Under the pieces are notes generated by a model. That model searched no databases. It saw only the letters and a program-made list of their open reading frames with translations, and was not told the origin of the DNA. From Ignavibacteriota bacterium (GTDB taxonomy: Bacteria > Bacteroidota > Ignavibacteria > UBA10030 > CAVZMI01), in assembly GCA_963776275.1 (NCBI GenBank), contig CAVZMI010000029.1, positions 23,123 through 87,122 of the forward strand: a stretch of DNA of 64,000 nucleotides, given 5' to 3'. The translations under genes were made by a program, and so were the position numbers. Shown piece after piece: positions 2,357 to 57,106 of the stretch. How positions within the stretch are numbered: the first letter of the stretch is position 1; every line of letters starts with the position of its first letter.

Positions 2357-3322
2357 TCATCCTCCTGCTAAATAAGTTGTGTCGACATACAACCACTCCC
2401 TTTTACCCTGTCCTCCAACTTGTAGTTGTTGCTCTATCACAAGTGCCACTGTCATCAAACCTTGTACACCTGCAGCACCCTCATACTTTCCTTCGCCATC
2501 GCCACTCATAATAAATCTTGCATCCCAGACCATACCGTTACCAGCTCTCATGATGTACCGTCTCATGATGGGTCTCATCACGCGCATAATATCAGTGAAC
2601 TTATCCCGCCGTGCCGGATTCCCAATACAGACCCATTCAACTTGGAAGGCATCTATATCGCTCTCACCTTTTACTATTTGATCATTATACTCTGCAATGA
2701 AACTTGAAAAATATCGTTCCGCTATCTGTCCAGGTAATCGGCTGACAACGACAAAAAAATCTTCATCTTTAACCGCAGAATAATTTTTCATAACTCGAAG
2801 ATTCTTAGGGATCTCCGGTTTTTGACCTTGCAGTGAACGAACGGCATCGATGGCTTTCTCCACTGCCCTGACAATCAGCGATTTTCCATCCACCGCATAT
2901 ATCTTGATCTGCGCTTCCGGGATGATACTAAGATCGATTGTGGATGAGGGTTTGTTCCACTTTTTATCTCTTATCATAGCTCGATAGAAATATTCTTTTC
3001 CGTTTTCTACTGAATAATCGACAATCCATGTATGCGCATTATCGAGATCTCTGAAAACAAATATTCCCAGATCTGCTAATTGCCCATCACTCAATTCATC
3101 ATCAAAATATTCCTCGATGTTTTCATTCGAAGGGTTTGCTCCCTGTTTCTTGAAAATATAGACCTGCCATACTTCAGGAAGATTTGTTGGCAATGTCCAA
3201 TTCAGTTGGATTTCTCCACCATGTGGATCAGAGTTCGCTGTAAATGATTCCAGCGGATCTGTATCATCTCTTGTAACCACGAGATAAAATATGAAGTGAA
3301 AAATTTTAGGGCGGCTCCTCAA
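2357..3322 (-). CDS. hypothetical virion-module protein
   Basis: 321-aa ORF. TTG at 3322 is the only start candidate I found near its 5' end. Preceded by the conserved 23-nt motif at 3355-3377. Confidence 0.5.
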   Translation of the reverse strand: MRSRPKIFHFIFYLVVTRDDTDPLESFTANSDPHGGEIQLNWTLPTNLPEVWQVYIFKKQGANPSNENIEEYFDDELSDGQLADLGIFVFRDLDNAHTWIVDYSVENGKEYFYRAMIRDKKWNKPSSTIDLSIIPEAQIKIYAVDGKSLIVRAVEKAIDAVRSLQGQKPEIPKNLRVMKNYSAVKDEDFFVVVSRLPGQIAERYFSSFIAEYNDQIVKGESDIDAFQVEWVCIGNPARRDKFTDIMRVMRPIMRRYIMRAGNGMVWDARFIMSGDGEGKYEGAAGVQGLMTVALVIEQQLQVGGQGKREWLYVDTTYLAGG

Positions 3323-3354
3323 CTGGAGCCATGAGAGAAGTTATTCTCAAAATA

Positions 3355-3377
3355 GGTAATTATTACCGTGATAATGG
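3355..3377 (-). promoter_or_regulatory. conserved palindromic motif, copy B (GGTAATTATTACCGTGATAATGG on the plus strand)
   Basis: Matches 14907-14929 at 22 of 23 positions. Contains the perfect palindrome GGTAAT-T-ATTACC. Lies about 35 nt upstream of a minus-strand virion ORF. Confidence 0.45.
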
Positions 3378-3456
3378 GAATTTAAACGAAAAATTTTCTT
3401 GACATTAATGTATAATATTATGAGATTCACGCATTATACTACTAATGGAGCCTACC

Positions 3457-3798
3457 ATGAAACCACGAATCACGTCTGTATTAATTGCATTTCTCTCGCT
3501 ATTTTTTCTTATAGCTCAATTAGATGCCGGTCAATGCAAAGCCATAACAAAGAAGGGAACCCAATGTAAACGAGAAGCGGTTTCCGGTTCTGACTATTGC
3601 TGGCAACATGGGGGCTCAAAAAAGAACAATTCATCAGTTTCCTCAAAATCCACCGATCAGTCTCCTGCGACTAAACAATCTAAAAAAGAGACAACCATCG
3701 GTACTACGGCAACCGGCAAATCCTTATATCAAGGACCGCGTGGAGGTGTATATCATTATAGTAAAAGTGGAAAAAAGGTATATCATAAAAGAAGGTAG
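3457..3798 (+). CDS. small secreted Cys/His-motif protein with a basic C-terminal GPRGG..GKKVY motif
   Basis: GGAG sits 7 nt upstream of ATG 3457, so the track start at 3445 lies upstream of the SD. N-terminus MKPRITSVLIAFLSLFFLIAQLDA looks like a signal peptide. Contains CKAITKKGTQCKREAVSGSDYCWQHG and GPRGGVYHYSKSGKKVY. Confidence 0.55.
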   Translation: MKPRITSVLIAFLSLFFLIAQLDAGQCKAITKKGTQCKREAVSGSDYCWQHGGSKKNNSSVSSKSTDQSPATKQSKKETTIGTTATGKSLYQGPRGGVYHYSKSGKKVYHKRR

Positions 3799-3806
3799 GC
3801 TAATTT

Positions 3807-4031
3807 ATGAAACTATCTAAAGATATTCGTGATTTACTACTCTGTTTGTTAATTGCGATTTCTGTAATATTCATATTTCAAACTTGCAGTAAGGATAGTA
3901 ATCCAACCTCATCCGGGGATTGTCCAAACGGAAGAAGTGGAGCGGTTTGCAACGATGGGACAACAAGTTCGGCGACGGGGAGTGGTGCTTGCTCAAAACA
4001 TGGAGGTGTTAATCACTGGCTATGTAAATAA
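3807..4031 (+). CDS. small secreted or lipoprotein-like DUF3761-type protein
   Basis: Hydrophobic N-terminus ending FIFQTC. C-terminal CNDGTTSSATGSGACSKHGGVNHWLC fits my recollection of the DUF3761 pattern CxDGxxSxSxxxxGxCSxHGGVxxW. Confidence 0.55.
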   Translation: MKLSKDIRDLLLCLLIAISVIFIFQTCSKDSNPTSSGDCPNGRSGAVCNDGTTSSATGSGACSKHGGVNHWLCK

Positions 4032-4061
4032 ATATAAAATCCTCTCCATCCTTTCATCTTT

Positions 4062-4940
4062 TTATTCCGCAGCAAGTCCGGCTTTCTGGAAGGCGTCTTT
4101 GACGGCTTTTGCCAGCATCCCATAGAATTCTGTTTTCACTGAATTAATCGCCTTTTCAGCAATATGCGATGCCTGGATCCCGGGATGTATCCACGCTTGG
4201 GGATCGGAGTTCTCGGATATTGTCCTGAATGATGAATACCGAGATCCGGAACCCGGACCAGCCTTGAATCTTACAATATTCTCAAAAGGTGATGTTTTCC
4301 ATGTGTACCGTACTGATCCTGTTGGCTCCCCGCCGCGAGGATATAGAGTCTGGCTCCCAGGTTTCCCCGCTCCCGATCGGGCCAGATCTCCTGTGACCGG
4401 AAAGACTTTCGATCGTCTGCCCAGATCTCCCATCCCCTTCAGCCGGCCGCCCCAGTCATATGAGCGCTGATCGCCCCGGGCCGTGTTTCTTATTATTGTG
4501 GTAATCCTACTTTCTCTCAAACCCCGGGCGCCCTCATACACTCCGGCTTCTTTGAGTTCGGATGTCGAATGTTCAAAAGGTATATGGATATATCTTTTTC
4601 CATCTTTCCCTACTTTTACCTTTGCACTCGTGCTCAACATTTTCTTGAGATCGAATGGTTGAACACCTTCCTCCAGATATTTCGCTGCAACATGTCTATT
4701 GACCACGAAAAATTGTAGTGGATCATGCTCGAATGGATATTCAATTCCTTCATCGATCTTTTGAATGTAGCCCCCGGGTCTTTTGAGGGCTGTCGCCGCT
4801 TCTTTGTGCCACGCCTGCACTAAAACCCCATAGCCGAAAGCCTCGACCTCACGCTCCAACTGCTCCTTCAATCCTTCAATTGCACTAACCAGATTTTCGA
4901 AAGGGGTGATATCGATAAAATATGAGAGTCGGATATCCAT
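4062..4940 (-). CDS. hypothetical virion-module protein
   Basis: 292-aa ORF convergent with the plus-strand pair of small genes. Family not recognised. Confidence 0.5.
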   Translation of the reverse strand: MDIRLSYFIDITPFENLVSAIEGLKEQLEREVEAFGYGVLVQAWHKEAATALKRPGGYIQKIDEGIEYPFEHDPLQFFVVNRHVAAKYLEEGVQPFDLKKMLSTSAKVKVGKDGKRYIHIPFEHSTSELKEAGVYEGARGLRESRITTIIRNTARGDQRSYDWGGRLKGMGDLGRRSKVFPVTGDLARSGAGKPGSQTLYPRGGEPTGSVRYTWKTSPFENIVRFKAGPGSGSRYSSFRTISENSDPQAWIHPGIQASHIAEKAINSVKTEFYGMLAKAVKDAFQKAGLAAE

Positions 4941-4964
4941 TATTAATATTTCTATGTGAATAAC

Positions 4965-4993
4965 TTGCTTTTTAAAATGAATATAGCTATACT
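4965..4993 (+). promoter_or_regulatory. sigma70-like promoter for the RHH-tnpB unit
   Basis: TTGCTT (4965-4970), 17-nt spacer, TATACT (4988-4993). The RHH ATG follows 6 nt later with no SD, so the transcript may be leaderless. Confidence 0.4.
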
Positions 4994-4999
4994 ATCTAT

Positions 5000-5131
5000 A
5001 TGAGAATCTTCCAAATTTATCTGACCAAACCTCAGATTGCGGCACTTAAAAAGCTCTCAGAGAAACTCGATCTAAGCATTGCCGAGCTCGTGCGTCGTGC
5101 CATTGATATGTTCTTGGAACAACAAAAATGA
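5000..5131 (+). CDS. ribbon-helix-helix (CopG/Arc-like) small protein coupled to tnpB
   Basis: 43-codon ORF absent from the track (under 60 aa): MRIFQIYLTKPQIAALKKLSEKLDLSIAELVRRAIDMFLEQQK. It has a beta-strand then two helices with the SxAELxRxAI signature. Its TGA overlaps the tnpB ATG (ATGA at 5128-5131). Confidence 0.6.
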   Translation: MRIFQIYLTKPQIAALKKLSEKLDLSIAELVRRAIDMFLEQQK

Positions 5132-6267
5132 GACGCACATTTCAATATCGAGTTCAACTTTCTAAAACTAATGAAGCGAATTGTCTCAGATGGTTAGAGC
5201 AATGCCGAATTCTCTACAACCTTGCTCTTGAACAACGTATTACCATCTATCGACAAAGCAGAAAATCCCTTTCTTGTTACGATCAAATAAAACAGTTGCC
5301 CGAACTCAAAAAAGAGTTTTCCGATTTCAAACAGGTTGATTCTCAATGTTTGCAGGATGTTCTTGAACGACTCGATAAAGCATTTAAAGGATTCTTTCGG
5401 CATGTCAAACAGGGTAAAGCTGGATTTCCACGCTTCAAGTCTTTTGGAAGATATGATTCCTTCACGTTGAAACAATGCAGTTGGAAACTCAATATTAGAA
5501 ATCTTACCATCAAAAATATCGGAGTTCTCAGCCTTCGTCTCTCCCGGCCGATCGAAGGCCGTATCAAGACCATTACAATTCGTCGAACTCCAACCGGCAA
5601 ATGGTTCGCCTGTTTCTCCTGTGATGAGGTTCCCGTTCGAAGCTTTCCGATAACCACGGCCGAAGTGGGTATCGATGTTGGTAGCAGAACATTTTGTACA
5701 GACTCCGATGGATTCAGTATTCCCAATCCAAAATATTTGAAACAGGGGCAAGCTGATCTCCGACGCAAGCAGCGTCGCCTTGCCAGGCGTGTCAGAGGCT
5801 CGCAACGCAGGAAGAAAGCACGGATGCTTGTAGCTAAGGCCCACGAGAAAGTAGCCAATCAGCGGAAAGATTTTCTTCATAAGTTGGCGAACGACTATAT
5901 AAGAAAATACAAAACGATCCATATTGAGGATCTCAATATTCAAGAAATGGTAAAAGGAATTAAAGGCAATACGAAATACATCGGCAAATCCGTGGCCGAT
6001 GCCGGATGGGGTGAATTCTTTCGAATGCTCTCGTACAAAGCGGAAGAAGCTGGTCGAGTCATTGTTAGAGTTCCCTCGAAGGATACGACAACCACCTGTT
6101 CCCGATGCGGCGTTGCTGTTCCAAAATCTCTTACCATTCGTATTCATCGATGTCCCTCTTGTAATCTTAAAATCGGCCGTGACCTAAATGCGGCTCTGAA
6201 TCTTTTAAGGGTCGGGCAGACCCTTCAGGCGTCAACGTGGGCTGATGTAAGGCCGTGCGTTGCCTGA
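5128..6267 (+). CDS. tnpB: TnpB (IS200/IS605-family OrfB, RNA-guided RuvC nuclease), copy 1
   Basis: 379 aa. N-terminus MRRTFQYRVQLSKT..CLRWLEQCRILYNLALEQR. RuvC motifs GIDVG, IHIEDL and RDLNAALN. Zinc finger CSRCG..CPSC. Paralog of 50143-51270. Confidence 0.9.
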   Translation: MRRTFQYRVQLSKTNEANCLRWLEQCRILYNLALEQRITIYRQSRKSLSCYDQIKQLPELKKEFSDFKQVDSQCLQDVLERLDKAFKGFFRHVKQGKAGFPRFKSFGRYDSFTLKQCSWKLNIRNLTIKNIGVLSLRLSRPIEGRIKTITIRRTPTGKWFACFSCDEVPVRSFPITTAEVGIDVGSRTFCTDSDGFSIPNPKYLKQGQADLRRKQRRLARRVRGSQRRKKARMLVAKAHEKVANQRKDFLHKLANDYIRKYKTIHIEDLNIQEMVKGIKGNTKYIGKSVADAGWGEFFRMLSYKAEEAGRVIVRVPSKDTTTTCSRCGVAVPKSLTIRIHRCPSCNLKIGRDLNAALNLLRVGQTLQASTWADVRPCVA

Positions 6268-6322
6268 GAATCTCGGCGTTTTTAAAAGCATGGGAATGTC
6301 AAAGCCTCTCATATTTCATAGC
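6160..6322 (+). ncRNA. putative omega RNA (reRNA) of TnpB copy 1. The 5' boundary is approximate, and the guide is predicted at 6303-6322.
   Basis: A 35-nt block (6203-6237) is 100% identical to copy 2 while the flanking codons differ at synonymous sites. It contains the hairpin GGGTC-GGGCA-GACCC (6209-6223). Conservation continues about 35 nt past the stop codon and ends at GGGAATGTCAA (6302). Confidence 0.5.
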
Positions 6323-44901: not shown

Positions 44902-44966
44902 GATTTCTCCTCTTTGGAAATAGAACGATCCCGCCAACCTCCCCTCAGCTGGCGGGACCCATGCGA

Positions 44967-46184
44967 TCAATTATTTCGCAACATCAATTCACCCGCTATT
45001 TCCTGCAACTCACGCTGCCGGCGCTGCTCGACGTCCCGGGCAACCGCCGATACCGCCTGTGAAAGTTTCCAGAGTGTCGGTTCACCGGTGACACCATCAT
45101 CCAGATTGCTTTCAAGAAGTTTCTTCTGTATGGCCTGTACTTCTATCGGAACTAAGCCGATTCGCGGAAGTCTTTTAATCTCTTGTTCGAGATCTACCAC
45201 CATTTCACTCGCTCCTTGGATTATCTTCCCGCGATGCACAAGTTCTTCTTTAGATAACAACTGGCGCACGATATCGCGGAGAACGCTCGCTTGGGTCTGA
45301 GTATCAAGGCGGTATGTTTCATCGCTAAGCCTGAAATCATCCGGGATCCGACCACCGAGATGAACCCTTCGCATTACGCTTTCCAATACGGAGCCATTCA
45401 AACATCGTCCCTGTAAAAAGAAGAATCTTACTTCAAGTGCCCCATCGCCAAAGTCACTGTTGGCCAACCTCAGACCGAATGCAAGGTGCACGATCCCGTT
45501 TCGCTGTGTCTTGATCGGGATGATAGTCGGTAAGAGTACTTCCAACCAAAATCGAAGATCGTCGGCGTATGCGTCGAATACCCGGGCTCCAGCTGAATGA
45601 ATCTCCGTTATAAAAGCCTTTGTGATTTCCGGGCTTGAAAGTCTGCGGTACTGATCACTCAGCACACCACGTATCTGGTTTCCTACCGATCGGACCAGAA
45701 CTCGCTGTCGCAACGAATGAGCGCAATGATCATTGAGTGTCCGTGCGGCAAGTCTCCGCTGCCAATCCTCATTGCCCAATGCCAAATTCCGGATATAGGC
45801 CGATGGGATGCCAAGCTTTTCTCCGGCCTGTTCAGCTGCATGGGGGTGGAGTGTAAATTTCTGTGAATTGCCGTTTCCTCCGAACTCCATGAAAAGGGAG
45901 CCGTTCGAATCAAAATACACCGGGGCATCTTGACCAAGCGGAGCGATGAAATCTTCCAGCATTGATCCATCTCGTTCTATCCGGTCGAGAATGTCCTTCG
46001 ACCTTCGTTGACCTTCTTCGATCTTCTCATCAATTTTATGTTGAAGAACTTCCCTGAGTCCTTCTTCTGTGTCTGTAAGCACTTCTGTCGTAGCCATTGC
46101 CGTATCTCCTATTTTGTTATTCCTGTTGTTGGAGTTCTTTTTCTGCTTTTTTCTGTTTCCATGCTTGGAGTTTTTGGAGACCAA
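44967..46184 (-). CDS. DUF932-like phage/plasmid protein (tentative)
   Basis: 405 aa. LAFGLRLANSDFGDGALEVRFFFLQGRCLNGSV resembles the NSxDGSxAL...vCxNG core I associate with DUF932. Not verified. Confidence 0.4.
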   Translation of the reverse strand: MVSKNSKHGNRKKQKKNSNNRNNKIGDTAMATTEVLTDTEEGLREVLQHKIDEKIEEGQRRSKDILDRIERDGSMLEDFIAPLGQDAPVYFDSNGSLFMEFGGNGNSQKFTLHPHAAEQAGEKLGIPSAYIRNLALGNEDWQRRLAARTLNDHCAHSLRQRVLVRSVGNQIRGVLSDQYRRLSSPEITKAFITEIHSAGARVFDAYADDLRFWLEVLLPTIIPIKTQRNGIVHLAFGLRLANSDFGDGALEVRFFFLQGRCLNGSVLESVMRRVHLGGRIPDDFRLSDETYRLDTQTQASVLRDIVRQLLSKEELVHRGKIIQGASEMVVDLEQEIKRLPRIGLVPIEVQAIQKKLLESNLDDGVTGEPTLWKLSQAVSAVARDVEQRRQRELQEIAGELMLRNN

Positions 46185-46730: not shown

Positions 46731-48806
46731 TTATAGCTTATCGAGTGTGTTTTCAACAAAGGTTTTGATCTTTTCAGCCTCTGATTTATCGATTCCCAAG
46801 GCCTTCGCAATGATCGCCAGATGTTTGGCTGGTGGTTCTCCTCTGTTTATTAATGTCTGTCGCTCGATCATGAATCTCTCGGCCAGAGCCAACATCTTCG
46901 TGTCACTCAATGCAGCACCCTCCTGATATGGTATGCTTACTTCGAGCTGAGTCAGTGCATCGCATAGTATCGCATCCACATCCGCAAAATCTTTCGAGCC
47001 ATCATTCGCGTGATCGACACGATTATTTATTTTCAACAACCGCTCATGCTCCATCAAATTCCATTCACCAACGGTTCGCCTGATACCACGTCGCGTCAGT
47101 TCGTGTTTGTCGTCAAATAGTATGTGAGGAATATTATTCCAGAACATCCACCTCAGCTTCGTATAGATCTTCATCTGCTGCGGATTACTGAATCCGAGTG
47201 TCTTGCTATAAACTCCTCTTGCAATAATCTCATGGGACAATTTCTCAGAATTGTATTTATCGCTTAGTGCAAACCGGCTTCCCGGGAATTTATCCAATAG
47301 GATCCCGAGTACTTCTCCAAAATTCAAGTAATCTACGGTCAGCTCCTCTTTCGGCTGCCATACAATTACGATGTCCAGTATCGGTCTTTTATTTATTGTC
47401 ACTAACTCTGCCCGATTCTCGATAAATAATTCATCGCGCATCTCATTCATCGTTTCGATATAGCCACCTTTGAATACAAATGCGTCATAGTTCGTGGCCG
47501 CATCAAACGCCCATCCCCGCGGCCTGCTGTCACCTTTTATTCTTGTTAATTCAATTCCAATGTATCTTTTTATCTCTCTTTTCATGGTCATCGGATTTTC
47601 TATCACTCGTTCGGTTACTTTATATTGATAATCTACAGGGGATTCTGATGGTGTGAAACACTCCCGGACCTTATCAACGTGAGGTTGATAGAATCCTTCC
47701 CTTGAACTTCCCTTGATACATTCGTATCGGGCTTTGGCGTCGGATGGATCATTTCTGTAAGCTGACGCAATATCTTTATCTTCTTTTTTGGCATTTGGAT
47801 TCATATCGAATGTAGAGCTTACGAATGCAAATATTGTTCGTGGTAGATTGTTTTTTTTCTCCTCTTCGGCTCTTTGAACCAATGTCCAGGTAAAATCCCA
47901 CTCGGAATTATTCAGATATGAAAAGGTTATTGATTTACCTACACTGTGACCGAATCGCGTATTAAGATTCCCTGTAACACCTTTATGTAAAAGTTCAACA
48001 TCACGGTATCCGGTCGCTGAATCGGCTCGCGATGGTTCATCGATGACGTCGATGATAAGATTCAATCCTTCAAACCCGGTAGGAGTCGAATCAAGAGAAT
48101 GATGTATTATAGGACCATGACCAAGCATTGTGGGTACTGTTATCTCTTTCTTTTTTAAGTCTCCAAACTGTGATCGCAGATCAAGTCCCACATATCGTTC
48201 GAACCAGTTTTCGTTGCCTTCTGCTGTCTTACATCGTCTGATTAATCCATCTATTTTCGAAAAATGTACGTCACGTGCCTGCTTTTCTGTTACCATTGAA
48301 TGATTTGCGATTTCGAAGGGCATTGCCTTGTCGATCGGCTTATCATAAAAACGTGAAAAGTATAGATGCGGATTGACCATGTTCGCTATTTTATAAGTGC
48401 AATAAATTACAAATGGTGCAATGATATATGTATTCTTTCCGCCGCCCTGACCGATCGCAAATACATACTGTTGATATGTTGTGTCCCATTCATACGGATC
48501 CCGCCCGGCTAATTCCCACAAAACTTTATACTGATTTTCTGAAGGATGCATATCCAGGCGTTGTTCAATAAACTCCTGAATGTCGACAACCCCACCCTCT
48601 TTCCAGAAACTCTTTTCTCTCCAGAATGGCTTGGTCTTCGATTCAGTCAGTAGTAATGGCGCCGGACTTTGGCCCTTGATCTGATTCAGTTGGTCCTGGT
48701 TCTCCTTGTTCTTTTTCTGGAACTGTTCGTCCTTGACCTGGCGCTCCAATCCTCCCAAGAGGAAGAGGAGGGAGTCCGTTATCCCTAAATGATTCTCTGA
48801 AGGCAT
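46731..48806 (-). CDS. terL: terminase large subunit
   Basis: 691 aa. Walker A-like IGQGGGKNTYI, Walker B LIIDVIDEPS, coupling motif FVSST, and RNaseH-fold nuclease motifs WAFDAATNYDAFVF and DGSKDFADVDAIL. The start is uncertain because of a 164-nt overlap with the upstream ORF. The next in-frame ATG is at 48551. Confidence 0.65.
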   Translation of the reverse strand: MPSENHLGITDSLLFLLGGLERQVKDEQFQKKNKENQDQLNQIKGQSPAPLLLTESKTKPFWREKSFWKEGGVVDIQEFIEQRLDMHPSENQYKVLWELAGRDPYEWDTTYQQYVFAIGQGGGKNTYIIAPFVIYCTYKIANMVNPHLYFSRFYDKPIDKAMPFEIANHSMVTEKQARDVHFSKIDGLIRRCKTAEGNENWFERYVGLDLRSQFGDLKKKEITVPTMLGHGPIIHHSLDSTPTGFEGLNLIIDVIDEPSRADSATGYRDVELLHKGVTGNLNTRFGHSVGKSITFSYLNNSEWDFTWTLVQRAEEEKKNNLPRTIFAFVSSTFDMNPNAKKEDKDIASAYRNDPSDAKARYECIKGSSREGFYQPHVDKVRECFTPSESPVDYQYKVTERVIENPMTMKREIKRYIGIELTRIKGDSRPRGWAFDAATNYDAFVFKGGYIETMNEMRDELFIENRAELVTINKRPILDIVIVWQPKEELTVDYLNFGEVLGILLDKFPGSRFALSDKYNSEKLSHEIIARGVYSKTLGFSNPQQMKIYTKLRWMFWNNIPHILFDDKHELTRRGIRRTVGEWNLMEHERLLKINNRVDHANDGSKDFADVDAILCDALTQLEVSIPYQEGAALSDTKMLALAERFMIERQTLINRGEPPAKHLAIIAKALGIDKSEAEKIKTFVENTLDKL

Positions 48807-49299
48807 TGATAGCTCTTAATTTGACTTCCGGTTCTAATCCTTCAATGGTTTTTGTTATTGCATCATAAATTGCTTCTACTAATCTTACGAATTGAAACTC
48901 TTTCATGAATTCTATATATCGTTCGAGTTGTTTACCTAACGATTCTGCCGATTGTAAAATGAGTTCCAGATATTTTCTTTTTTCTCTTTCATTAATCTTT
49001 TCTAAACTCTTTTTTGCAATCTCCAATACCACCCGTGTATCGGTTATACAGCTTTGTACTTCATTGATTATGTTAATTCCACGTTCATAATGTTCTTGGC
49101 TATCGCGTATAAATTTTTTTACTATTCCAGCCTTTATACCGGCACGCGATTGTTTCTGTTTATCTCTGACCGATACCCCTGCTCGCTTCTTGTGATAATT
49201 GACAAGTCGAACTTTTATTCCCAGTATTTTAGCAATTTCCTTGGCTGATAAACCCTTTTTGTTCAGTTTGAGTATATTTTCACGAAGATTTTTTTTCAA
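48643..49299 (-). CDS. terS: putative terminase small subunit (N-terminal HTH)
   Basis: 218 aa. LNKKGLSAKEIAKILGIKVRLVNYHKKRAG. Sits immediately upstream of terL. The G/P-rich C-terminal tail lies in the overlap region. Confidence 0.5.
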   Translation of the reverse strand: MKKNLRENILKLNKKGLSAKEIAKILGIKVRLVNYHKKRAGVSVRDKQKQSRAGIKAGIVKKFIRDSQEHYERGINIINEVQSCITDTRVVLEIAKKSLEKINEREKRKYLELILQSAESLGKQLERYIEFMKEFQFVRLVEAIYDAITKTIEGLEPEVKLRAINAFRESFRDNGLPPLPLGRIGAPGQGRTVPEKEQGEPGPTESDQGPKSGAITTD

Positions 49300-49568
49300 T
49301 CTTCAACCTCAACAATCATCCGAAATTGGTTCTTCGCTGCAACTGCATAGCACAACTTTCTGATACACTCAATTGTCTGCCCACCCCTCCCGAGCACTTT
49401 CCCAACTTCTGAGGCGGTCACTTCGATGTATAGGGCATACATCTTATCACGCTCTCCTTCTTTTATTTCCACACTGTCGGGTGTGTTGACGAGATTTTTG
49501 ACAATGTTTTCAACCATCTCCCTTATTTGTCGTGCAACTTGTTGTTGCTTCGGATTGAGTGATTTCAT
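49296..49568 (-). CDS. KH-domain RNA-binding protein (KhpA/YlqC-like)
   Basis: 90 aa. VKNLVNTPDSVEIKEGERDKMYALYIEVTASEVGKVLGRGGQTIECIRKLCYAVAAKNQFRMIVEV carries the GxxG loop and the layout of the UPF0109/KhpA family. Confidence 0.7.
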   Translation of the reverse strand: MKSLNPKQQQVARQIREMVENIVKNLVNTPDSVEIKEGERDKMYALYIEVTASEVGKVLGRGGQTIECIRKLCYAVAAKNQFRMIVEVED

Positions 49569-49651
49569 AGAATTCTCCCCTGAAAATGATTTACTAATGA
49601 TGGGCTACTGCAATGCATTAAGAAAATCCAACCATACCCCTTGAACTCTTT

Positions 49652-50110
49652 TTACTTCCATCCAGACCTCGGCCAATCTTTCGGAAATATTATTCCTACG
49701 GACGGATTCAATTCGCGTATGGCCATGGCACGCGCCACATATACAGCTTCTTTATTCTTGAATATGATATAGCTTTCAGCACCGAGTCTTTCGAGATCGC
49801 ATAATGCTTCGAACTGATGATATTTCACACCGAATTGATCTGGATCTGTCGGTAATAAAAAAGGTAAACCGAGTTTCGTTCTGTGACTCTTCGCCTCGAT
49901 GAATAGTGATCGGGCATATTGATTGTTTGAACCATAAAATCGTGAACCTATAAAGTCATATCCTGTCCTTCGCTTAAAAAATACTACATCTCCATTCGGC
50001 GTCTTTCTGTATCCTTTTGGAACCTCGAACTTTTGCAAATAGGCTATTCTCCGCCTCCAATATTCCTTCGCCACAAGCATTATCTCCTTCTCAAAATCCA
50101 TACCCCTCAT
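49652..50110 (-). CDS. PD-(D/E)xK Holliday-junction-resolvase-like nuclease (RecU/Hjc-like)
   Basis: TGYDFIGSRF...SLFIEAKSH gives the D...ExK motif. The likely start is ATG 50110 (MRGMDF), with AGGA 6 nt upstream. The track start at 50155 lies inside the TnpB right end. Confidence 0.55.
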   Translation of the reverse strand: MRGMDFEKEIMLVAKEYWRRRIAYLQKFEVPKGYRKTPNGDVVFFKRRTGYDFIGSRFYGSNNQYARSLFIEAKSHRTKLGLPFLLPTDPDQFGVKYHQFEALCDLERLGAESYIIFKNKEAVYVARAMAIRELNPSVGIIFPKDWPRSGWK

Positions 50111-50255
50111 TGACATTCCTACGTTTAAAGACGTTGAGATTTTCAGGCTACACATGAGTTTACCTCACTCTTCGTTGACGCCTGAAGGGTCTGCCCGACC
50201 CTTAAAATGTTATGTGCCGCGTTCAAATCCCGATTCATCTTCAAACCGCATGCGG
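50090..50255 (-). ncRNA. putative omega RNA (reRNA) of TnpB copy 2. The 5' boundary is approximate, and the guide is predicted at 50109-50090.
   Basis: Carries the same 35-nt identical block and hairpin (50187-50201) as copy 1. Homology ends at AGGAATGTCAA (last A at 50110). Confidence 0.5.
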
Positions 50256-51270
50256 GACATTTATGAATACGACGGTGAATTGTTTTTGGTACCAACTCTC
50301 CACATTGAGAACAAGTTTCACTCGTGCCTTTGGGATCAACCTTCACCACCGTCCTACCAGCTTCCTCCGCTTTGTAGGATAGCATTGTAAAGAAATCACC
50401 CCATCCGGCATCGGCCACAGATTTACCTGCATATTTGTTTTCACTGACCATTGCTGGTATATCCAGATCCTCGATGTGAATGATTTTGTAATTTCTGATG
50501 TAATGATTCGCTGTCTTATGAAGAAAATCTTTGCGCTGATTCGCTATTCTCTCATGGACCTTGGCTACAAACATCCGTGCTTTCTTCCTGCGTTGCGAAC
50601 CTCTGACTTTCCGTGCAAGTCTTCGTTGACGGCGACGGAGATCTGCCTGTCCCTGCTTTAAGTATTTTGGATTGGGAATACTGAATCCATCGGAGTCTGT
50701 ACAGAATGTACGGCTGCCAACATCGATACCGACCTCGGCCGTCGTTACCGGAAAACTCCGAACCGGAACTTCGTCACAGGAAAAGCAAGCGAACCATTTG
50801 TCGGTTGAGGTGCGACGGATTGTAATGGTTTTGATCTTACCCTCAATCGGTCGGGAGAGATAAAGTTTCAATCGTCCAATCTTCGAAAGATGCAAATATT
50901 GTCCTTCAATTTTCCAGCCATGTTGTGTCAAGGTGAAGGAATCATAGCGACCAACGGATTTGAAACGTGGGAATCCGGCTTTGCCTTGCTTAACTCTCCG
51001 GAAGAATCCTTTGTATGATTTATCGAGTCGCTGAAGAACATCACATAGGCAGTGAGAATCAATCTGTATAAAGTCAGGAAATGCTTTTTTGAGTTCCGGA
51101 AGTTGATTCTGTTGATCGTAATAAGAGAGAGATTTTTTACACTGCCGATAAACCATTATGCGTTGCTCGAGGGCGAGGTTGTAAAGAACTCGGCACTGTT
51201 CCAACCAACGGAGGCAATTCACCTCAGTTGTCTTCGAAAGTTGAACTCGATATTGAAATGCGCGTCTCAT
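50143..51270 (-). CDS. tnpB: TnpB (IS200/IS605-family OrfB, RNA-guided RuvC nuclease), copy 2
   Basis: 375 aa. GIDVG, IHIEDL, CSQCG..CPACG and RDLNAAHN are all present. By eye about four-fifths identical to copy 1. Confidence 0.9.
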   Translation of the reverse strand: MRRAFQYRVQLSKTTEVNCLRWLEQCRVLYNLALEQRIMVYRQCKKSLSYYDQQNQLPELKKAFPDFIQIDSHCLCDVLQRLDKSYKGFFRRVKQGKAGFPRFKSVGRYDSFTLTQHGWKIEGQYLHLSKIGRLKLYLSRPIEGKIKTITIRRTSTDKWFACFSCDEVPVRSFPVTTAEVGIDVGSRTFCTDSDGFSIPNPKYLKQGQADLRRRQRRLARKVRGSQRRKKARMFVAKVHERIANQRKDFLHKTANHYIRNYKIIHIEDLDIPAMVSENKYAGKSVADAGWGDFFTMLSYKAEEAGRTVVKVDPKGTSETCSQCGELVPKTIHRRIHKCPACGLKMNRDLNAAHNILRVGQTLQASTKSEVNSCVA

Positions 51271-51458
51271 CGCGTCTCTATTCCCCGGCGTTTTATCATT
51301 TGTGCATTTCTCAATTCCGCGCTGATTTCTTTCCAGACATTCCCGCGCCGCTCTGGGAATATGCTTTGAGGATCATTGACGGGACCAGGCCGACTTTTGT
51401 ATAACTCAAGAGCGATCGACAGGAAGACACTGCTCGACTTATTATCCGCCTTTTGCAT
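51267..51458 (-). CDS. small coupled ORF (63 aa)
   Basis: MQKADNKSSSVFLS... Its start shares TAATG with the DUF5131 stop, and its stop shares ATGA with the tnpB start. No motif recognised. Confidence 0.35.
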   Translation of the reverse strand: MQKADNKSSSVFLSIALELYKSRPGPVNDPQSIFPERRGNVWKEISAELRNAQMIKRRGIETR

Positions 51459-52408
51459 TATTTGGTTTCGCATATCGTCCTCTCTGGCATCTCATTCCAG
51501 ATTCTACAATCAAGCTCTCGACCTGCTTTATTCTTCCCTATTCCATCAAACCACCACCGTTCCTTTGTCACGGGATCCTCAAAGAGTTGATAATGCAGCA
51601 TTGTTTTTCTTTCTTCATATGTCTCGGCATCTCTCATCTCACTCTCCGGACATATTGGTTTCCATCGTCCCCATTGTTTAAAGAAAAACGGGATGGATGC
51701 TGCCTCGCATTGATCGCGAATCTCACGTACCCAATTGGGAAATAGTGGTCTTGCTTCCGGACCAGATTCGCCTCCACATATCACCCAGGTAAGTTTTGAT
51801 TTATTTCCCCACCATTTTGCTGGGTCTTTCCGACCATTGACACAAAACAATTTTATAGGTCCGAGCATTGGCTCTATACTTAAGAATCTGACCGCAGCCG
51901 GCGTTTCATACAGATCTGATACACGTAGATCATATGTCTCTTGGTTCTCTGCTGATATCCCCAGCCAAACGTTCGGTTTTGGCCAATGACAACCTATAAT
52001 GATTCCGGTCCCATCGTATGCTTTCTCCGGAGCCGTTCCATTGTGAGTCCAAATTCCCTCCCAAGACCCTACCTTAGAAAACCATTCTTTCATTCGCCCA
52101 GGACGTTTCGTCAATATCTGATAAATATGTTTTTCAGACATTGCGCCAAATACTCTCGCAATAAAATCATCAGGCACCTGTTCATGGAATAGATCACTCA
52201 TCGAACACAAAAAAATCTTCCTCGGCTTTCGCCAGTGAAGAGGCTGATCTAACTTCTCCGGATGAAGTTCAATTTTTGAGAAATCGACATCTATCCTCGG
52301 TGCGATCCGTTCTGCATAACAATTTTTACATCCGGCCGATATTTTTGTGCAACCAGAGATAACGTTCCAGGTTGAATCCGTCCATTCTATTTTTGAGTTT
52401 ATTCCCAC
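51458..52408 (-). CDS. DUF5131 (phage Gp37/Gp68 family) protein
   Basis: 316 aa. SKIEWTDSTWNVISGCTKISAGCKNCYAERIAPR is the family's signature N-terminus. GTG start with GGAAGGA upstream. Confidence 0.8.
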   Translation of the reverse strand: MGINSKIEWTDSTWNVISGCTKISAGCKNCYAERIAPRIDVDFSKIELHPEKLDQPLHWRKPRKIFLCSMSDLFHEQVPDDFIARVFGAMSEKHIYQILTKRPGRMKEWFSKVGSWEGIWTHNGTAPEKAYDGTGIIIGCHWPKPNVWLGISAENQETYDLRVSDLYETPAAVRFLSIEPMLGPIKLFCVNGRKDPAKWWGNKSKLTWVICGGESGPEARPLFPNWVREIRDQCEAASIPFFFKQWGRWKPICPESEMRDAETYEERKTMLHYQLFEDPVTKERWWFDGIGKNKAGRELDCRIWNEMPERTICETK

Positions 52409-52432
52409 TTTAATTTCCTTCCGAATAAAAAC

Positions 52433-52510
52433 CTCTCGCGTGCTATTCTTCTAATAAGGGCGGAGGCGGCCCCCGATCGTCCCCCGATAAGACGATCATA
52501 CACGCGAGAG
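52433..52510 (-). other. structured intergenic element (long-range stem enclosing hairpins, followed by a T-tract)
   Basis: 10-bp stem CTCTCGCGTG/CACGCGAGAG (52433-52442 with 52501-52510) encloses GATCGTC-9 nt-GACGATC (52475-52497) and a GC-rich hairpin. On the minus strand it is followed by GTTTTTATT. Confidence 0.4.
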
Positions 52511-52514
52511 AGTC

Positions 52515-53222
52515 TTATGGTTGTGAATTGTTCCTTATAATTTCATCAAACTCTACCATCATTTGTGGAACCAGCATCGGTAGAATTAATTCCCAGTGAG
52601 GATCTTCATTTTGGACAATTCCCTTTGCAACTGCTTTCTGCCAGAGGTCAAGTTTTGCCTGATCTGGAAGTAAGTAAAATTGCGCCTGGAGGCGCTTACA
52701 TTTTTTATCGATTCGTTCTGCATGTTTGCGGATTTGTTCTCTTATTTTACCACTCCACCAGATTTGTACATCAATTAGACCCTGCCTTGCGAATTCTTCC
52801 TCATTCATCGATCCAATTTTAAGTCGAATATATTCATCTCTTCTTTTTTGGATCCGATGTTCAAAAATCATTTCAATCTCTGCCGAGCTATAAAGGGTTT
52901 CAGAGTTAAGAAACATATCAAGAGTAATTGCCCGAAAATCCTTCGTTTTGACTACGTTCTTTGCCCATTCTAAAATTTTTTCGATGGGTTCCGGTTGATT
53001 ATTCAGAGACACTGCCAATGCTCGTCGTTCATCGTCGGAAAGATGAATTTGCTTCATGTTTTCGACCCATTGAACAATTTTAACAATCCTGGCATATCGT
53101 GCAGCATCACTCTCTGCGACGGACTGGAGTTTGTTCAAAAGTGCGTCGAGCGTCTTCGTTTGTTGTAGATCCACCTGCTCTCGCAGATCGACCTTCTTGA
53201 TTACTTCTTGAATGCTTTCCAT
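52515..53222 (-). CDS. hypothetical replication-module protein
   Basis: 235-aa ORF with no P-loop. Overlaps the upstream ORF by 116 nt. Confidence 0.45.
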   Translation of the reverse strand: MESIQEVIKKVDLREQVDLQQTKTLDALLNKLQSVAESDAARYARIVKIVQWVENMKQIHLSDDERRALAVSLNNQPEPIEKILEWAKNVVKTKDFRAITLDMFLNSETLYSSAEIEMIFEHRIQKRRDEYIRLKIGSMNEEEFARQGLIDVQIWWSGKIREQIRKHAERIDKKCKRLQAQFYLLPDQAKLDLWQKAVAKGIVQNEDPHWELILPMLVPQMMVEFDEIIRNNSQP

Positions 53223-53991
53223 TTTTCACCGTTAAAAATAGTCTTGTGAATTGTTTCCGTAATGCTGACACCGAGAGAATATTTATTTTCCAAAATGGAT
53301 CATGTTGACAAAATTCGATTATTATTCTTATCTCATTTGGATTGCGTTTGTCAAGGCGTATTAGCCTATCCATTTCCATTGCCCATTCTTCAAAATTTGG
53401 TCTTTTCACTTTGGGATCGTTTTTAAGCATTCTCGCGTATAGGAGTCTTGATAATTTCATCGGAGGTAATTCTTTTGGGAATCGTTCCGACGCTCTTTTT
53501 CTTTTGTCCTTGTCCTTGTCCTTGTCCTTGTCCTTGTCCTTAACCCCTTCTATGCCCTCAATTTGATCTCTATTTGAGATCAAATTGGAGTCAAGTTGAC
53601 CTCCATTTGAGGTCAAGTTGAGGTCAAGTTGAGTTCTTAAATAGGGTGTTGGATCAATCCCATTTTGAATAAGTAAATTGATTGCTGAATTATGCATCCG
53701 ATTCTTATCGTTCAAAATTCCACCGTATTGGAACTCTATGAATCCCGTTAAAAACCACCTCCCATTATCCAGAACCTTTATTCGTTCTTTGTCCACATTA
53801 ACTGTTTCAATAAACTCTTGAAGATTGACTTTCGCCCCAATCAATCTGTTAAATGTCGTACTATTCGGCCGCCATATTCCCGCATGATCACATGTATCTT
53901 TTATGAATCCCCATAGGAGTTTGTAATTCTTTGACAATCCAATAAACCAGTCTTCTTTCCATATTTCTGTATCTGTGTATCTTTTTGCCAT
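53107..53991 (-). CDS. replisome organizer / replication initiator (DnaD/DnaB_2-like C-terminal domain)
   Basis: 294 aa. N-terminal WKEDWFIGLSKNYKLLWGFIKDTCDHAGIW. C-terminal WAMEMDRLIRLDKRNPNEIRIIIEFCQHDPFWKINILSVSALRKQFTRL fits the DnaD-like pattern. Iterons lie in the linker. Confidence 0.6.
   Translation of the reverse strand: MAKRYTDTEIWKEDWFIGLSKNYKLLWGFIKDTCDHAGIWRPNSTTFNRLIGAKVNLQEFIETVNVDKERIKVLDNGRWFLTGFIEFQYGGILNDKNRMHNSAINLLIQNGIDPTPYLRTQLDLNLTSNGGQLDSNLISNRDQIEGIEGVKDKDKDKDKDKDKRKRASERFPKELPPMKLSRLLYARMLKNDPKVKRPNFEEWAMEMDRLIRLDKRNPNEIRIIIEFCQHDPFWKINILSVSALRKQFTRLFLTVKNGKHSRSNQEGRSARAGGSTTNEDARRTFEQTPVRRRE
53506..53541 (-). repeat. hexanucleotide tandem repeat (GTCCTT)x6 encoding (KD)n
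   Basis: Six perfect units, translated as KDKDKDKDKDKDK in the replisome organizer linker. Confidence 0.9.
53565..53632. other. putative replication origin: palindromes plus three phased GTCAAGTTGA iterons
   Basis: GATCTC-TATTT-GAGATC at 53565-53581. GTCAAGTTGA at 53590, 53612 and 53623, giving spacings of 22 and 11 bp. Lies inside the initiator gene, as in the lambda O/ori arrangement. Confidence 0.5.
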
Positions 53992-53997
53992 AAGGAC

Positions 53998-54498
53998 CTA
54001 TGCCGGTATGCATTCAAGTTGATTGTAGAGCGCTGATACTATTGGATCTTCTTTTTTTGATTTTTTTGTTTCATTTATCGTTGCCGGTTTTTGTACCAGA
54101 ACCGGCGCCATTACAGATTGAAATTGAGCCGCATCAAGTCCCATCAATGACCAATCTATTGCATTTCTCCTACGTTTAAGACTTTTACGAGCGCAAACAA
54201 GCTCCTCATGATTTAGCGCCCAAAAATATCCTCTACCACGATGACCGATGGCTATCGGATTATGATTGCCCCTTAACCAATTGATCATTTTTCGTAATTG
54301 AATATCATTGATTGTTATTCCGTCCGATGCTTTCAGCCGCTCACATATTTCTCGGCCGAGAATAGGTTTAAGAGGTGTAACACTTCCGGATGCTCGGGAT
54401 GATTTAAGCTTCCTCGCAATCTTTATGGCGATGGCTTTCAGATCATCCTTAATGTTAAAATCATCAATCTCTTCTTCGAGCTCATTCATAATAGACAC
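53998..54498 (-). CDS. hypothetical protein
   Basis: 166-aa ORF. Confidence 0.45.
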   Translation of the reverse strand: MSIMNELEEEIDDFNIKDDLKAIAIKIARKLKSSRASGSVTPLKPILGREICERLKASDGITINDIQLRKMINWLRGNHNPIAIGHRGRGYFWALNHEELVCARKSLKRRRNAIDWSLMGLDAAQFQSVMAPVLVQKPATINETKKSKKEDPIVSALYNQLECIPA

Positions 54499-55734: not shown

Positions 55735-56145
55735 TCAAAATGGAAGGTCTGATTCGTTTTGAACTGTACCAGTTGCAGCTGCTGATGATTGGTTTTCCGC
55801 AGCTTCGCTCGACGATGTTTGCCTTGGAGCTCCATCGAGCATGATTAAACTCTCAGCCAAGATTTCAGTGATATAACGTTTCACACCATTTTTATCGTCG
55901 TAGCTTCGTGTTTGAATCCGTCCTTCGATATAAACTCTTTTCCCCTTCTTCAGCCACTCGCCGCATATTTCTGCAAGTTTTCTCCAGGCAACAATATTGT
56001 GCCACTCGGTGCGTTCCTGCAGATTTCCATCCTGATCCTTCCAGCTCTCGCTTGTCGCGATGGCAACTCCGCTTGTGGTATATCGGAGCTCAGGGTCCTT
56101 CCCGAGATTTCCGATGAGCATCGCTTTATTCAGACTTTTCGCCAT
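55735..56145 (-). CDS. ssb: single-stranded DNA-binding protein
   Basis: 136 aa. [48 protein letters not shown] is an OB fold. The acidic C-terminal tip ends in DLPF. Confidence 0.9.
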
Positions 56146-57106
56146 CTGAAGTCTCCGATGATGTGACGGTTGTGGTTTCAGTAAATATTCTCTTACTCAC
56201 GTATCTCAGCGCGTCGCCGTTATGCTTCACCGCCTCCAGACATACCTCAACCGTCTGTTCCTTCACGTATCTCAGCGCGTAGCCGTCCCGACGCACCGCC
56301 TCCAGACATACCTCAACCGTCTGTTCCTTCACGTATCTCAGCGCGTCGCCGTTATGCTTCACCGCCTCCAGACATACCTCAACCGTCTGTTCCTTCACGT
56401 ACTGAAGCGCGTAGCCGTCCTGACGCACCGCCTCCAGACATACCTCAACCGTCTGTTCCTTCACGTACTGAAGCGCGTCGCCGTTATGCTTCACCGCCTC
56501 CAGACATACCTCAACCGTCTGTTCCTTCACGTACTGAAGCGCGTCGCCGTCCCGACGCACCGCCTCCAGACATACCTCAACCGTCTGTTCCTTCACGTAT
56601 CTCAGCGCGTAGCCGTCCTGACGCACCGCCTCCAGACATACCTCAACCGTCTGTTCCTTCACGTACTGAAGCGCGTCGCCGTCCTGACGCACCGCCTCCA
56701 GACATACCTCAACCGTCTGTTCCTTCACGTATCTCAGCGCGTAGCCGTTATGCTTCACCGCCTCCAGACATACCTCAACCGTCTGTTCCTTCACGTACTG
56801 AAGCGCGTCGCCGTTATGCTTCACCGCCTCCAGACATACCTCAACCGTCTGTTCCTTCACGTACTGAAGCGCGTCGCCGTTATGCTTCACCGCCTCCAGA
56901 CATACCTCAACCGTCTGTTCCTTCACGTACTGAAGCGCGTCGCCGTCCTGACGCACCGCCTCCAGACATACCTCAACCGTCTGTTCCTTCACGTACTGAA
57001 GCGCGTCGCCGTCCTGACGCACCGCCTCCAGAGCTTTTTCGCCTATTAGTTCGATGATTTCTGATTCTCGGCGATTGATCGATACCAAAAATAACTTGAG
57101 ATCCAT
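56126..57106 (-). CDS. tandem-repeat protein (DUF4116-like 22-aa repeats x13)
   Basis: 326 aa. The unit LEAV[RQD/KHN/RRD]G[D/Y]AL[Q/R][10 protein letters not shown] repeats 13 times. Short unique N- and C-termini. Confidence 0.7.
56198..57031 (-). repeat. 66-bp tandem repeat array (about 12.6 units), coding
   Basis: Exact 66-nt periodicity (for example CGCCTCCAGA at 56231 and 56297). The units are identical except at a few codons. Confidence 0.95.

Follow-up and report, generated by a model that had tools for sequence, protein, structure and literature searches.

A probable IS200/IS605 remnant, composed of tnpB, its omega-RNA and a right end, in a phage operon in place of the first codons of a RecU-like resolvase gene

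A stretch of 64,000 nucleotides (nt) of contig CAVZMI010000029.1 (assembly GCA_963776275.1, positions 23,123 to 87,122), called here the window and used for all coordinates given below, contains two copies of the nuclease gene tnpB among phage genes. The present analysis deals with the second one, tnpB copy 2, which is located on the minus strand within a phage replication/packaging operon, between a small open reading frame (ORF) preceded by a DUF5131 gene and a gene for a RecU-like Holliday-junction resolvase. The features of this locus, with protein lengths in amino acids (aa), are the following:

51458..52408, minus strand: DUF5131 gene, upstream member of the operon (Pfam PF07505, E = 3.9e-87; phrog_2045)
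51267..51473, minus strand: small phage ORF, 68 aa from ATG 51473 or 63 aa from ATG 51458
50143..51270, minus strand: tnpB copy 2, 375 aa (Pfam OrfB_IS605 PF01385, Cas12f1-like_TNB PF07282 and HTH_OrfB_IS605 PF12323)
50110..50229, minus strand: predicted omega-RNA scaffold, formed by the tnpB 3' end and a 33-nt tail; its 5' end is provisional
50120-50110, minus strand: right-end terminus AGGAATGTCAA, a TCAA cleavage-site-like end that fits the family consensus
50090..50109, minus strand: predicted guide TGAGGGGTATGGATTTTGAG, equal to the 20 nt of the resolvase core that come directly after the A of its ATG
49652..50155, minus strand: RecU-like Holliday-junction resolvase ORF, with candidate starts at ATG 50155, 50116 and 50110

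The positions given for this locus in a first-pass annotation were confirmed on the minus strand, namely the TAATG at 51460-51456, the ATGA at 51270-51267, the conserved tail at 50120-50110, the AGGA located 6 nt upstream of ATG 50110, the guide at 50109-50090 and the 9-mer GGGAATGTC at 51344-51336. The comparison of the junctions was based on three genomes, which are the window and two related phages without tnpB at the copy 2 position, L084 (an 86-kb ENA contig with about 82% nt identity to the window over the shared genes) and L165 (a JGI contig).

The tnpB copy 2 gene ends at a TGA (50145-50143), and its product carries the RuvC residues D183, E267 and D348 and the zinc-finger cysteines C320, C323, C338 and C341 (CxxC...CxxC), all of them in invariant columns of a 30-sequence alignment. 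No disabling mutation is present and, as judged from its sequence, the protein is an intact RNA-guided RuvC nuclease. Its earlier description as a second TnpB was borne out by the 76% aa identity to the product of copy 1. The DNA homology between both copies starts exactly at the ATG and stops at GGAATGTCAA, and their ratio of nonsynonymous to synonymous substitutions (dN/dS) is 0.137 with a dS of 1.25, which suggests that the copies are old and have evolved separately under protein-level constraint. The nearest TnpB proteins outside this genome, several of them in related phages, are 65% identical, and no near-identical copies with other flanks that could indicate recent mobility were found, the sole other copy being the 76% identical one. 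Domestication as a nuclease-dead, TldR-like protein was considered and rejected because the catalytic residues are intact and the cassette formed by tnpB and the omega-RNA is absent from both L084 and L165.

The right end was located by comparing 18 family members, in which the tail that follows the tnpB stop has the form ...GCCTGAGAATC-hairpin-AGTGTCAA, with (A/G)GTGTCAA after the hairpin. The elements end in (A/G)TG(T/C)CAA and their flanks are unrelated immediately after GTCAA, so that in copy 2 the right end is fixed at 50110 and the guide begins at 50109; the boundary previously drawn from the conserved tail was maintained when these additional copies were aligned. The scaffold of copy 2 ends at ...GGAATGTCAA (50110), and the last A of AGGAATGTCAA is also the A of the ATG that opens the sequence MRGMDF. 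The terminus proper is AGGAATGTC in copy 2 and GGGAATGTC in copy 1. The RNAalifold analysis of the omega-RNA revealed 27 pairs, 20 of them with compensatory changes. In this structure 95.5% of the cells were paired, compared with 75.5% in shuffled alignments (none of 500 shuffles reached the observed value) and about 40% in a control with slid partners. A covariance model recognized 50210-50110 with 81.1 bits and copy 1 with 82.9 bits, with no other match in the window and none in the tnpB-less relatives. The scaffold architecture is kept in copy 2, with a terminal hairpin weaker than that of the family consensus (4 good pairs). The TnpB identity, the right-end boundary and the omega-RNA structure are thus clearly above chance.

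The left side of copy 2 differs from that of the clade. The canonical left end, which was defined in L082, L088, L090, L093 and L098-L100 from two-copy elements and from a conserved GAGAAAAC-hairpin-ATGAAT motif, comprises TTAT or TTAC, 17-19 nt, GAGAAAAC, the hairpin and ATGAAT. A TTGAC...TATACT promoter and tnpA come next, and an ATGA is shared by the tnpA stop and the tnpB start. None of these components was found upstream of copy 2, where phage coding DNA homologous to L084 and L165 extends up to the ATGA. In addition, no sigma-70-like promoter site was detected upstream of copy 2 tnpB, no TTAY target motif at the left junction and no Y1_Tnp ORF beside the gene, and a tblastn search of the window, which covers 64,000 nt of the 93-kb contig, with the TnpA proteins of the clade yielded only noise (best E = 0.14).

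The genes upstream of tnpB are joined by overlapping stops and starts, the TAATG at 51460-51456 linking the DUF5131 stop to an in-frame ATG of the small ORF and the ATGA at 51270-51267 joining the TGA of the small ORF to the tnpB ATG. Overlaps of four bases (NTGA) occur in 15 of the 81 adjacent minus-strand ORF pairs of the window; they are the norm in this genome, so the overlaps alone are unremarkable. Because copy 2 lacks a promoter and a left end of its own and is attached to the phage operon by the ATGA overlap, expression as part of the operon, as already proposed in the first-pass annotation, is the best reading, rather than expression as an autonomous insertion sequence (IS).

The small ORF gave no Pfam and no PHROG match, but homologs are found in the same place in the tnpB-less L084 (7813-8001) and L165, and it is regarded here as a phage gene outside the element; its interpretation as a degenerate TnpA or Arc gene was rejected on account of this conservation. 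The 63-aa version that starts in the TAATG exists as described, although that start has no Shine-Dalgarno sequence (+0.1 kcal/mol; energies are those of the pairing with the anti-Shine-Dalgarno sequence), and the alternative ATG 51473, which gives 68 aa, has its own AGAGGA (-6.5 kcal/mol). The copy of GGGAATGTC located inside this ORF (51336-51344) had been put forward as the same 9-mer as the right-end terminus of copy 2 and as a possible left-end vestige. However, copy 2 ends in AGGAATGTC and GGGAATGTC is the terminus of copy 1, so that only the 8-mer GGAATGTC is common to both, and this 8-mer is present 9 times in the window (about 3 expected). The site encodes the conserved RGNVW of the small ORF, also present in the tnpB-less relatives (L084 carries GGGAATATT at this point), and the true left end of the family is wholly unlike it. 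The vestige was therefore rejected, and the occurrence is due to chance.

In L084 and L165 the gene order is DUF5131, small ORF and a 189-aa resolvase, with no tnpB between them. The small ORF of these phages ends in TAATGA or CGATGA, which overlaps the resolvase start (TAATG or ATGA coupling), and the resolvase begins with a 22-residue N-terminal extension (MIIQERRKKLIIRSADLGNAG in L084, MIVQEHRKRIIIRSTDPGAAG in L165) followed by MRGMDFEKE; the extension is kept in both phages and is therefore considered as coding. At the left junction the window shares ...CGATGA with the relatives, and at the right one the homology resumes at AATGAG (50111/50110). The cassette is thus placed exactly where the first 22 resolvase codons would be, from the ATGA start to Met23 and between two ATGA(G) repeats, and it appears to replace these codons instead of being inserted in an intergenic junction. 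The comparison with relatives that had been proposed to reveal an empty site between the DUF5131 and resolvase genes did not show a simple junction of this kind, since the resolvase of these phages begins 22 codons further upstream and its start is coupled to the small ORF. A different start codon in the relatives had been named beforehand as an observation against the first-pass model, and it was found.

The cassette also coincides with a step in similarity to L084. To its right, the region 47400-50110 (resolvase, KH, HTH and TerL genes) shows 74-91% nt identity and the TerL proteins 94% aa identity. To its left, a 2.7-kb region (51267-54000) with a DnaD-like gene, a 235-aa gene, the DUF5131 gene and the small ORF shows only 24-73% nt identity and its proteins 51-57%, with about 51% aa identity for the DUF5131 protein, so this module is far more diverged than the genes to the right of tnpB. 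The cassette is therefore located at a sharp mosaic boundary.

The position of the guide is set by the right end and, as previously stated, it covers roughly the first 20 nt of the resolvase coding region, which correspond to the start of the resolvase core. When up to 3 mismatches were allowed, it matched only its own flank in the window. The corresponding sites of the relatives are CCGGAA followed by TGAGAGGAATGG in L084 and GCCGGCA followed by TGAGAGGTATGG in L165, each with 2 mismatches in 20 positions and no TTAY on its 5' side. The TTAY motif, expected directly 5' of the guide match and absent in both empty alleles, was taken as the target motif of the clade from the insertion of copy 1 next to TTAT and from the clade layout, and is the putative one of the copy 2 protein. 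With two mismatches and without TTAY, the guide would not address the junction of these relatives, contrary to the proposal that it recognizes the uninterrupted locus, and no target could be demonstrated for it beyond its own flank.

The ORF downstream of the cassette had been described as RecU/Hjc-like, and this description was corroborated. It matched phrog_843 (E = 5.5e-11) and Pfam RecU (E = 1.2e-4, below the cut-off of that family). A sequence search of PDB produced only noise and a fold search was needed instead, in which the AlphaFold2 model (pLDDT 90.3) was matched by Foldseek to Bacillus subtilis RecU (1zp7, E = 1.2e-7, TM 0.64) and also to Hjc (2wcw, E = 1.7e-4). Residues D52, E72 and K74, which form the D...ExK motif, are invariant, and the product is a predicted RecU-like resolvase. 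Its core shows a dN/dS of 0.06-0.08, indicative of strong purifying selection. The closest homologs start 2-9 residues before a G-x-x-F-E motif, so the truncated form is plausibly functional and a resolvase starting at or near MRGMDF is plausible. The candidate starts, together with an altered segment at the end of the gene, are the following:

50155, minus strand: ATG, 167 aa, GAGG 7 nt upstream (50166-50163, loop of an inner scaffold hairpin), -9.5 kcal/mol
50116, minus strand: ATG without Shine-Dalgarno sequence, +0.6 kcal/mol
50110, minus strand: ATG, 152 aa, AGGA at 50120-50117, 6 nt upstream, -4.2 kcal/mol, a value reached by 28% of random ATGs of the window
49605..49676, minus strand: frameshift segment, with a 1-nt deletion (about 49675) with respect to the relatives and an orphaned C-terminus (VWMEVKRVQGVWLDFLNALQ and stop) out of frame

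ATG 50155 lies 13 nt inside tnpB and is the start of a 167-aa protein of a public collection (P0121), whereas ATG 50110 already exists as Met23 in the relatives, and the AGGA that precedes it is the 3' arm of the terminal scaffold hairpin and part of the conserved right end of the family. Whichever start is used, the initiation signals of the resolvase would come from the right end of the element. At the opposite end of the gene, a three-way alignment with frame translations revealed that the DFL..L motif, nearly invariant in the homologs, is encoded intact in another frame. The resolvase is the sole frame-broken gene among more than 30 shared genes, and for this reason the deletion is probably real and recent, the alternative being a single assembly error. 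Programmed frameshifting was also considered and dropped, as no slippery heptamer was seen by eye.

Taken together, the stretch 50110-51270 (minus strand) is probably the right-hand part (tnpB, omega-RNA and right end) of an IS608-like IS200/IS605 element that has no left end, first gene (tnpA or arc) or promoter and that has been fused into the phage operon in place of the first 22 codons of the resolvase. In this situation read-through transcription of the operon would include tnpB, whose translation would be coupled to that of the small ORF, and a Y1 transposase could no longer move the element. The 5'-truncated resolvase would be initiated from signals inside the right end, either ATG 50155 with its GAGG or ATG 50110 with its AGGA. 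The same RNA stretch would serve both as omega-RNA scaffold and guide and as ribosome-binding site and first codons of the resolvase; with both roles in one stretch, transcripts that TnpB binds or processes would hardly be available as resolvase mRNA. TnpB may still assemble with its own omega-RNA, although no target is apparent.

The least certain step is the origin of this arrangement, for which an insertion or a module acquisition, followed or accompanied by deletion between the two ATGA(G) repeats, is the most likely course. By one route, an element would first have inserted in the canonical way; the interval from the ATGA at the resolvase start to the ATGA of tnpB would later have been deleted, and with it the extension as well as the left end and first gene of the element. 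By the other, recombination would have brought in tnpB along with the diverged left module, the crossover on the right side having taken place at the right end of the element.

Several points weigh against this explanation. Only two tnpB-less relatives are available, and the identity between them (85.6% nt) is higher than their identity to the window (82%), so the polarity of the change rests on the mobility of tnpB and not on parsimony. Since the left module is far more diverged, the relatives may not show the true left flank that preceded the insertion, and it is possible that the donor lineage never had the 22-codon extension. The lack of TTAY before the guide match in the relatives means that the right junction is not provable as an original transposase junction. 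Finally, a tnpB without disabling mutation also fits a continued function.

A function of this kind is proposed by the first alternative, in which the cassette, devoid of its left end, is a working nuclease for transposase-independent homing or for competition. It would cut related co-infecting phages without the cassette, which would then either be copied in by recombinational repair, as non-restorative homing, or lead to the destruction of the competitor. The intact catalytic residues, the purifying selection on the protein and the conserved omega-RNA fold agree with this idea, although the dN/dS also covers the time spent as an active IS and the terminal scaffold hairpin of copy 2 is weakened. 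The embedding of the gene in an operon resembles that of the free-standing homing endonuclease genes of T4, the concept is treated in a review (PMC13565253), a second tnpB without canonical left end is found in the related phage L085, and co-conversion or marker exclusion might leave a sharp similarity break such as that observed at the cassette. Against it, the insertion is missing from both relatives, two mismatches, including one at position 5, separate their alleles from the 20-nt guide, and CCGGAA or GCCGGCA is found where TTAT or TTAC is required. The homing or competition nuclease is a doubtful alternative.

Also unlikely is the complete model of the first-pass annotation, according to which the AGGA and the terminal A of the right end constitute the Shine-Dalgarno sequence and the start of the resolvase at 50110 and the guide targets the uninterrupted DUF5131/resolvase junction. 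Its geometry is exactly as it was described, the AGGA belongs to the conserved right end and close resolvase homologs start 2-9 residues before the G-x-x-F-E motif. Nevertheless, the pairing at ATG 50110 is at chance level and that of ATG 50155, where P0121 starts, is stronger; the AGGA is engaged in the terminal hairpin as its 3' arm; the A is not assignable to the element when the ATG is already Met23 in the relatives; and the uninterrupted locus is built differently and has no target motif.

A more elaborate possibility, quite unlikely, is that the final 100 nt or so of the omega-RNA also act as the 5' leader of the resolvase mRNA and supply its ribosome-binding site and initial codons, so that TnpB binding or processing in cis would gate resolvase translation, possibly in addition to transposase-independent homing. 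If true, this would be a post-transcriptional switch made from a stranded transposon end. Among the closest relatives, the GAGG in the scaffold hairpin loop and ATG 50155 are specific to copy 2 (other close family members have GTG at the position of this ATG), yet L098 shows a comparable arrangement by chance, and an adaptive origin of this pair is not claimable.

A very improbable alternative is a still-mobile, non-autonomous IS1341-type element inserted recently by a Y1 transposase acting in trans. The right end is complete, with a canonical TCAA, and complete tnpA-tnpB elements of this clade are present in related phages, but the two copies are only 76% identical with a dS of 1.25, no TnpA is encoded in the window, and there is neither a left-end hairpin or TTAY nor space for them, with phage homology up to the ATGA, so that this reading is effectively refuted by the left junction. 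An assembly chimera joining a tnpB contig to a phage contig is scarcely credible: the contig comes from a metagenome-type source and the similarity break coincides with the cassette, but reading frames and start/stop overlaps are kept at both junctions, homology to the relatives follows the same order on both sides and all the other shared genes are intact.

Among the known systems, the remnant described above is best filed as an immobilised IS608-type member of IS200/IS605, with the right end and TnpB of that type present and its left end, TnpA and mobility lacking. IS608-type elements consist of Y1 TnpA, TnpB and omega-RNA, with a TTAC target and a TCAA right-end cleavage site, and the clade relatives insert 3' of TTAT or TTAC. 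Copy 2 shares with them the three TnpB Pfam domains, the omega-RNA over the tnpB 3' end and the right-end subterminal hairpin with TCAA, but it has no left end, TnpA, promoter or left-junction target motif, and its ATG is fused to a phage ORF rather than to tnpA. Immobilised or exapted TnpB proteins are a published category (Altae-Tran et al. 2023, PMC10691335). Like the IS1341-type solo tnpB genes and exapted TnpBs of that work, copy 2 has no transposase and is apparently immobile among unrelated genes. However, IS1341-type elements keep both ends and copy 2 only the right one, and most of the described exaptations are nuclease-dead or conserved across species, whereas copy 2 keeps its catalytic triad and is missing in the two nearest relatives.

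The free-standing seg and mob homing endonuclease genes of T-even phages, which spread by intronless homing (concept in PMC13565253), are, like copy 2, selfish nuclease genes wedged between conserved phage genes and transcribed by the phage. In copy 2 the recognition would be RNA-guided and no cleavable empty allele was identified, so the analogy is not supported by the alleles compared here. In IStrons, which are chimeras of IS605/607 elements and group I introns (PMC10690162, PMC13521648), one RNA serves the element and the expression of the interrupted host gene, as would be the case in copy 2; the difference is that no intron is present here and the host gene is 5'-truncated and would be re-initiated within or at the end of the omega-RNA.

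No new mechanism is revealed by this locus, which is an ordinary kind of stranded IS remnant with a tidy gene fusion. It illustrates at nucleotide resolution how an IS605-family element may be cut down to tnpB and omega-RNA and absorbed by a phage operon, taking over the start/stop coupling of its neighbour while its right end gives a truncated gene a new translation start. It may be used as a worked example for the annotation of the many orphan tnpB genes of phage genomes, and as a natural construct for testing the competition between omega-RNA formation and downstream translation on one transcript.

The searches for further related sequences gave few results. A megablast search of 50,697 phage records with a 10-kb query produced no match, and tblastn against the phage records retrieved only TnpBs with at most 46% identity. 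An exact look-up of the TnpB of the window led to no recorded contig. In IMG/VR, the scan with DUF5131 recovered only relatives with at most 47% identity, of no use for the junction, the scan with the resolvase gave no match and the scan with TerL a sole match (L168), too distant and without resolvase. The TerL scan of genome contigs was negative, hence no host was assigned. At gathering thresholds no Rfam family matched the window, Rfam having no family for the omega-RNA, and ARAGORN detected no tRNA in it.

Copy 1 is organized as follows:

4940..6322, plus strand: copy 1, with TTAT target (4940-4943), degenerate left end, promoter TTGCTT-17-TATACT, RHH gene (5000-5131), tnpB (5128-6267), omega-RNA (6200-6302) and guide (6303-6322)

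This nearly complete element is oriented opposite to all the neighbouring phage genes, and its promoter is located about 6 nt before the ATG (leaderless-like). It is a clean insertion 3' of TTAT, with an empty site in the relative L166, where the two genes on either side are joined by an ATGA overlap and no cassette is present. A 43-aa RHH (Arc-like) gene occupies the place of tnpA, beside the element promoter, and overlaps tnpB by ATGA, and the same RHH-tnpB layout is found in L096. This putative RHH gene is the counterpart of the Arc repressor lately reported for IS605 elements (bioRxiv 10.64898/2026.09.24.754181) in a work that stresses a divergent arrangement; in contrast to copy 1, copy 2 has no arc gene. 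An inverted repeat of 13-14 nt flanks copy 1 (ATAAAATATGAGAG at 4915-4928 and CTCTCATATTTCAT at 6305-6318), and as a result its guide has a partial match, with 3 mismatches in 16 positions, on the opposite strand of the flank beyond the other end of the element. The gene downstream of copy 1 has acquired a new N-terminus (MDIR...), its counterpart in L166 starting with MIGYN...

Another tnpB of the same clade (65% identity) was found at 2482-4155 of the more distant related phage L085, separated by 12 nt from the stop of a preceding RecU-like gene and followed by a KH gene, without left-end hairpin or ATGAAT box and with a possible remnant promoter. This stripped-down insertion beside the same RecU-like gene is independent of copy 2, and stripped-down tnpB copies thus recur in this phage group. 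The window has no counterpart of a DDE transposase gene of the IS1595 family that is found, accompanied by three small ORFs, in L084 (2569-3504, minus strand), which indicates that these phages have been colonised by more than one IS family.

Other differences between the window and its relatives were observed on the minus strand. A 1.15-kb segment (44960-46108) that neither L084 nor L165 has contains a gene for a 376-aa protein (ATG 46097), which matched only phrog_1362 (unknown function), with no Pfam match; this accessory gene is inserted with the small genes downstream of TerL on one side and those that precede the SNF2 helicase gene on the other. Tandem 66-bp repeats at 56197-57032 are included in an ORF (56126-57106) for a 326-aa DUF4116-repeat protein with 12 repeats by Pfam, and the L084 homolog has 525 aa, so the repeat number differs between relatives. 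A gene for a KhpA/KhpB-type KH-domain RNA-binding protein (49296-49568), an unusual member of a packaging module, is located between the resolvase gene and the HTH (small-terminase-like) gene and is kept in L084, L165, L085 and the contig of P0003.

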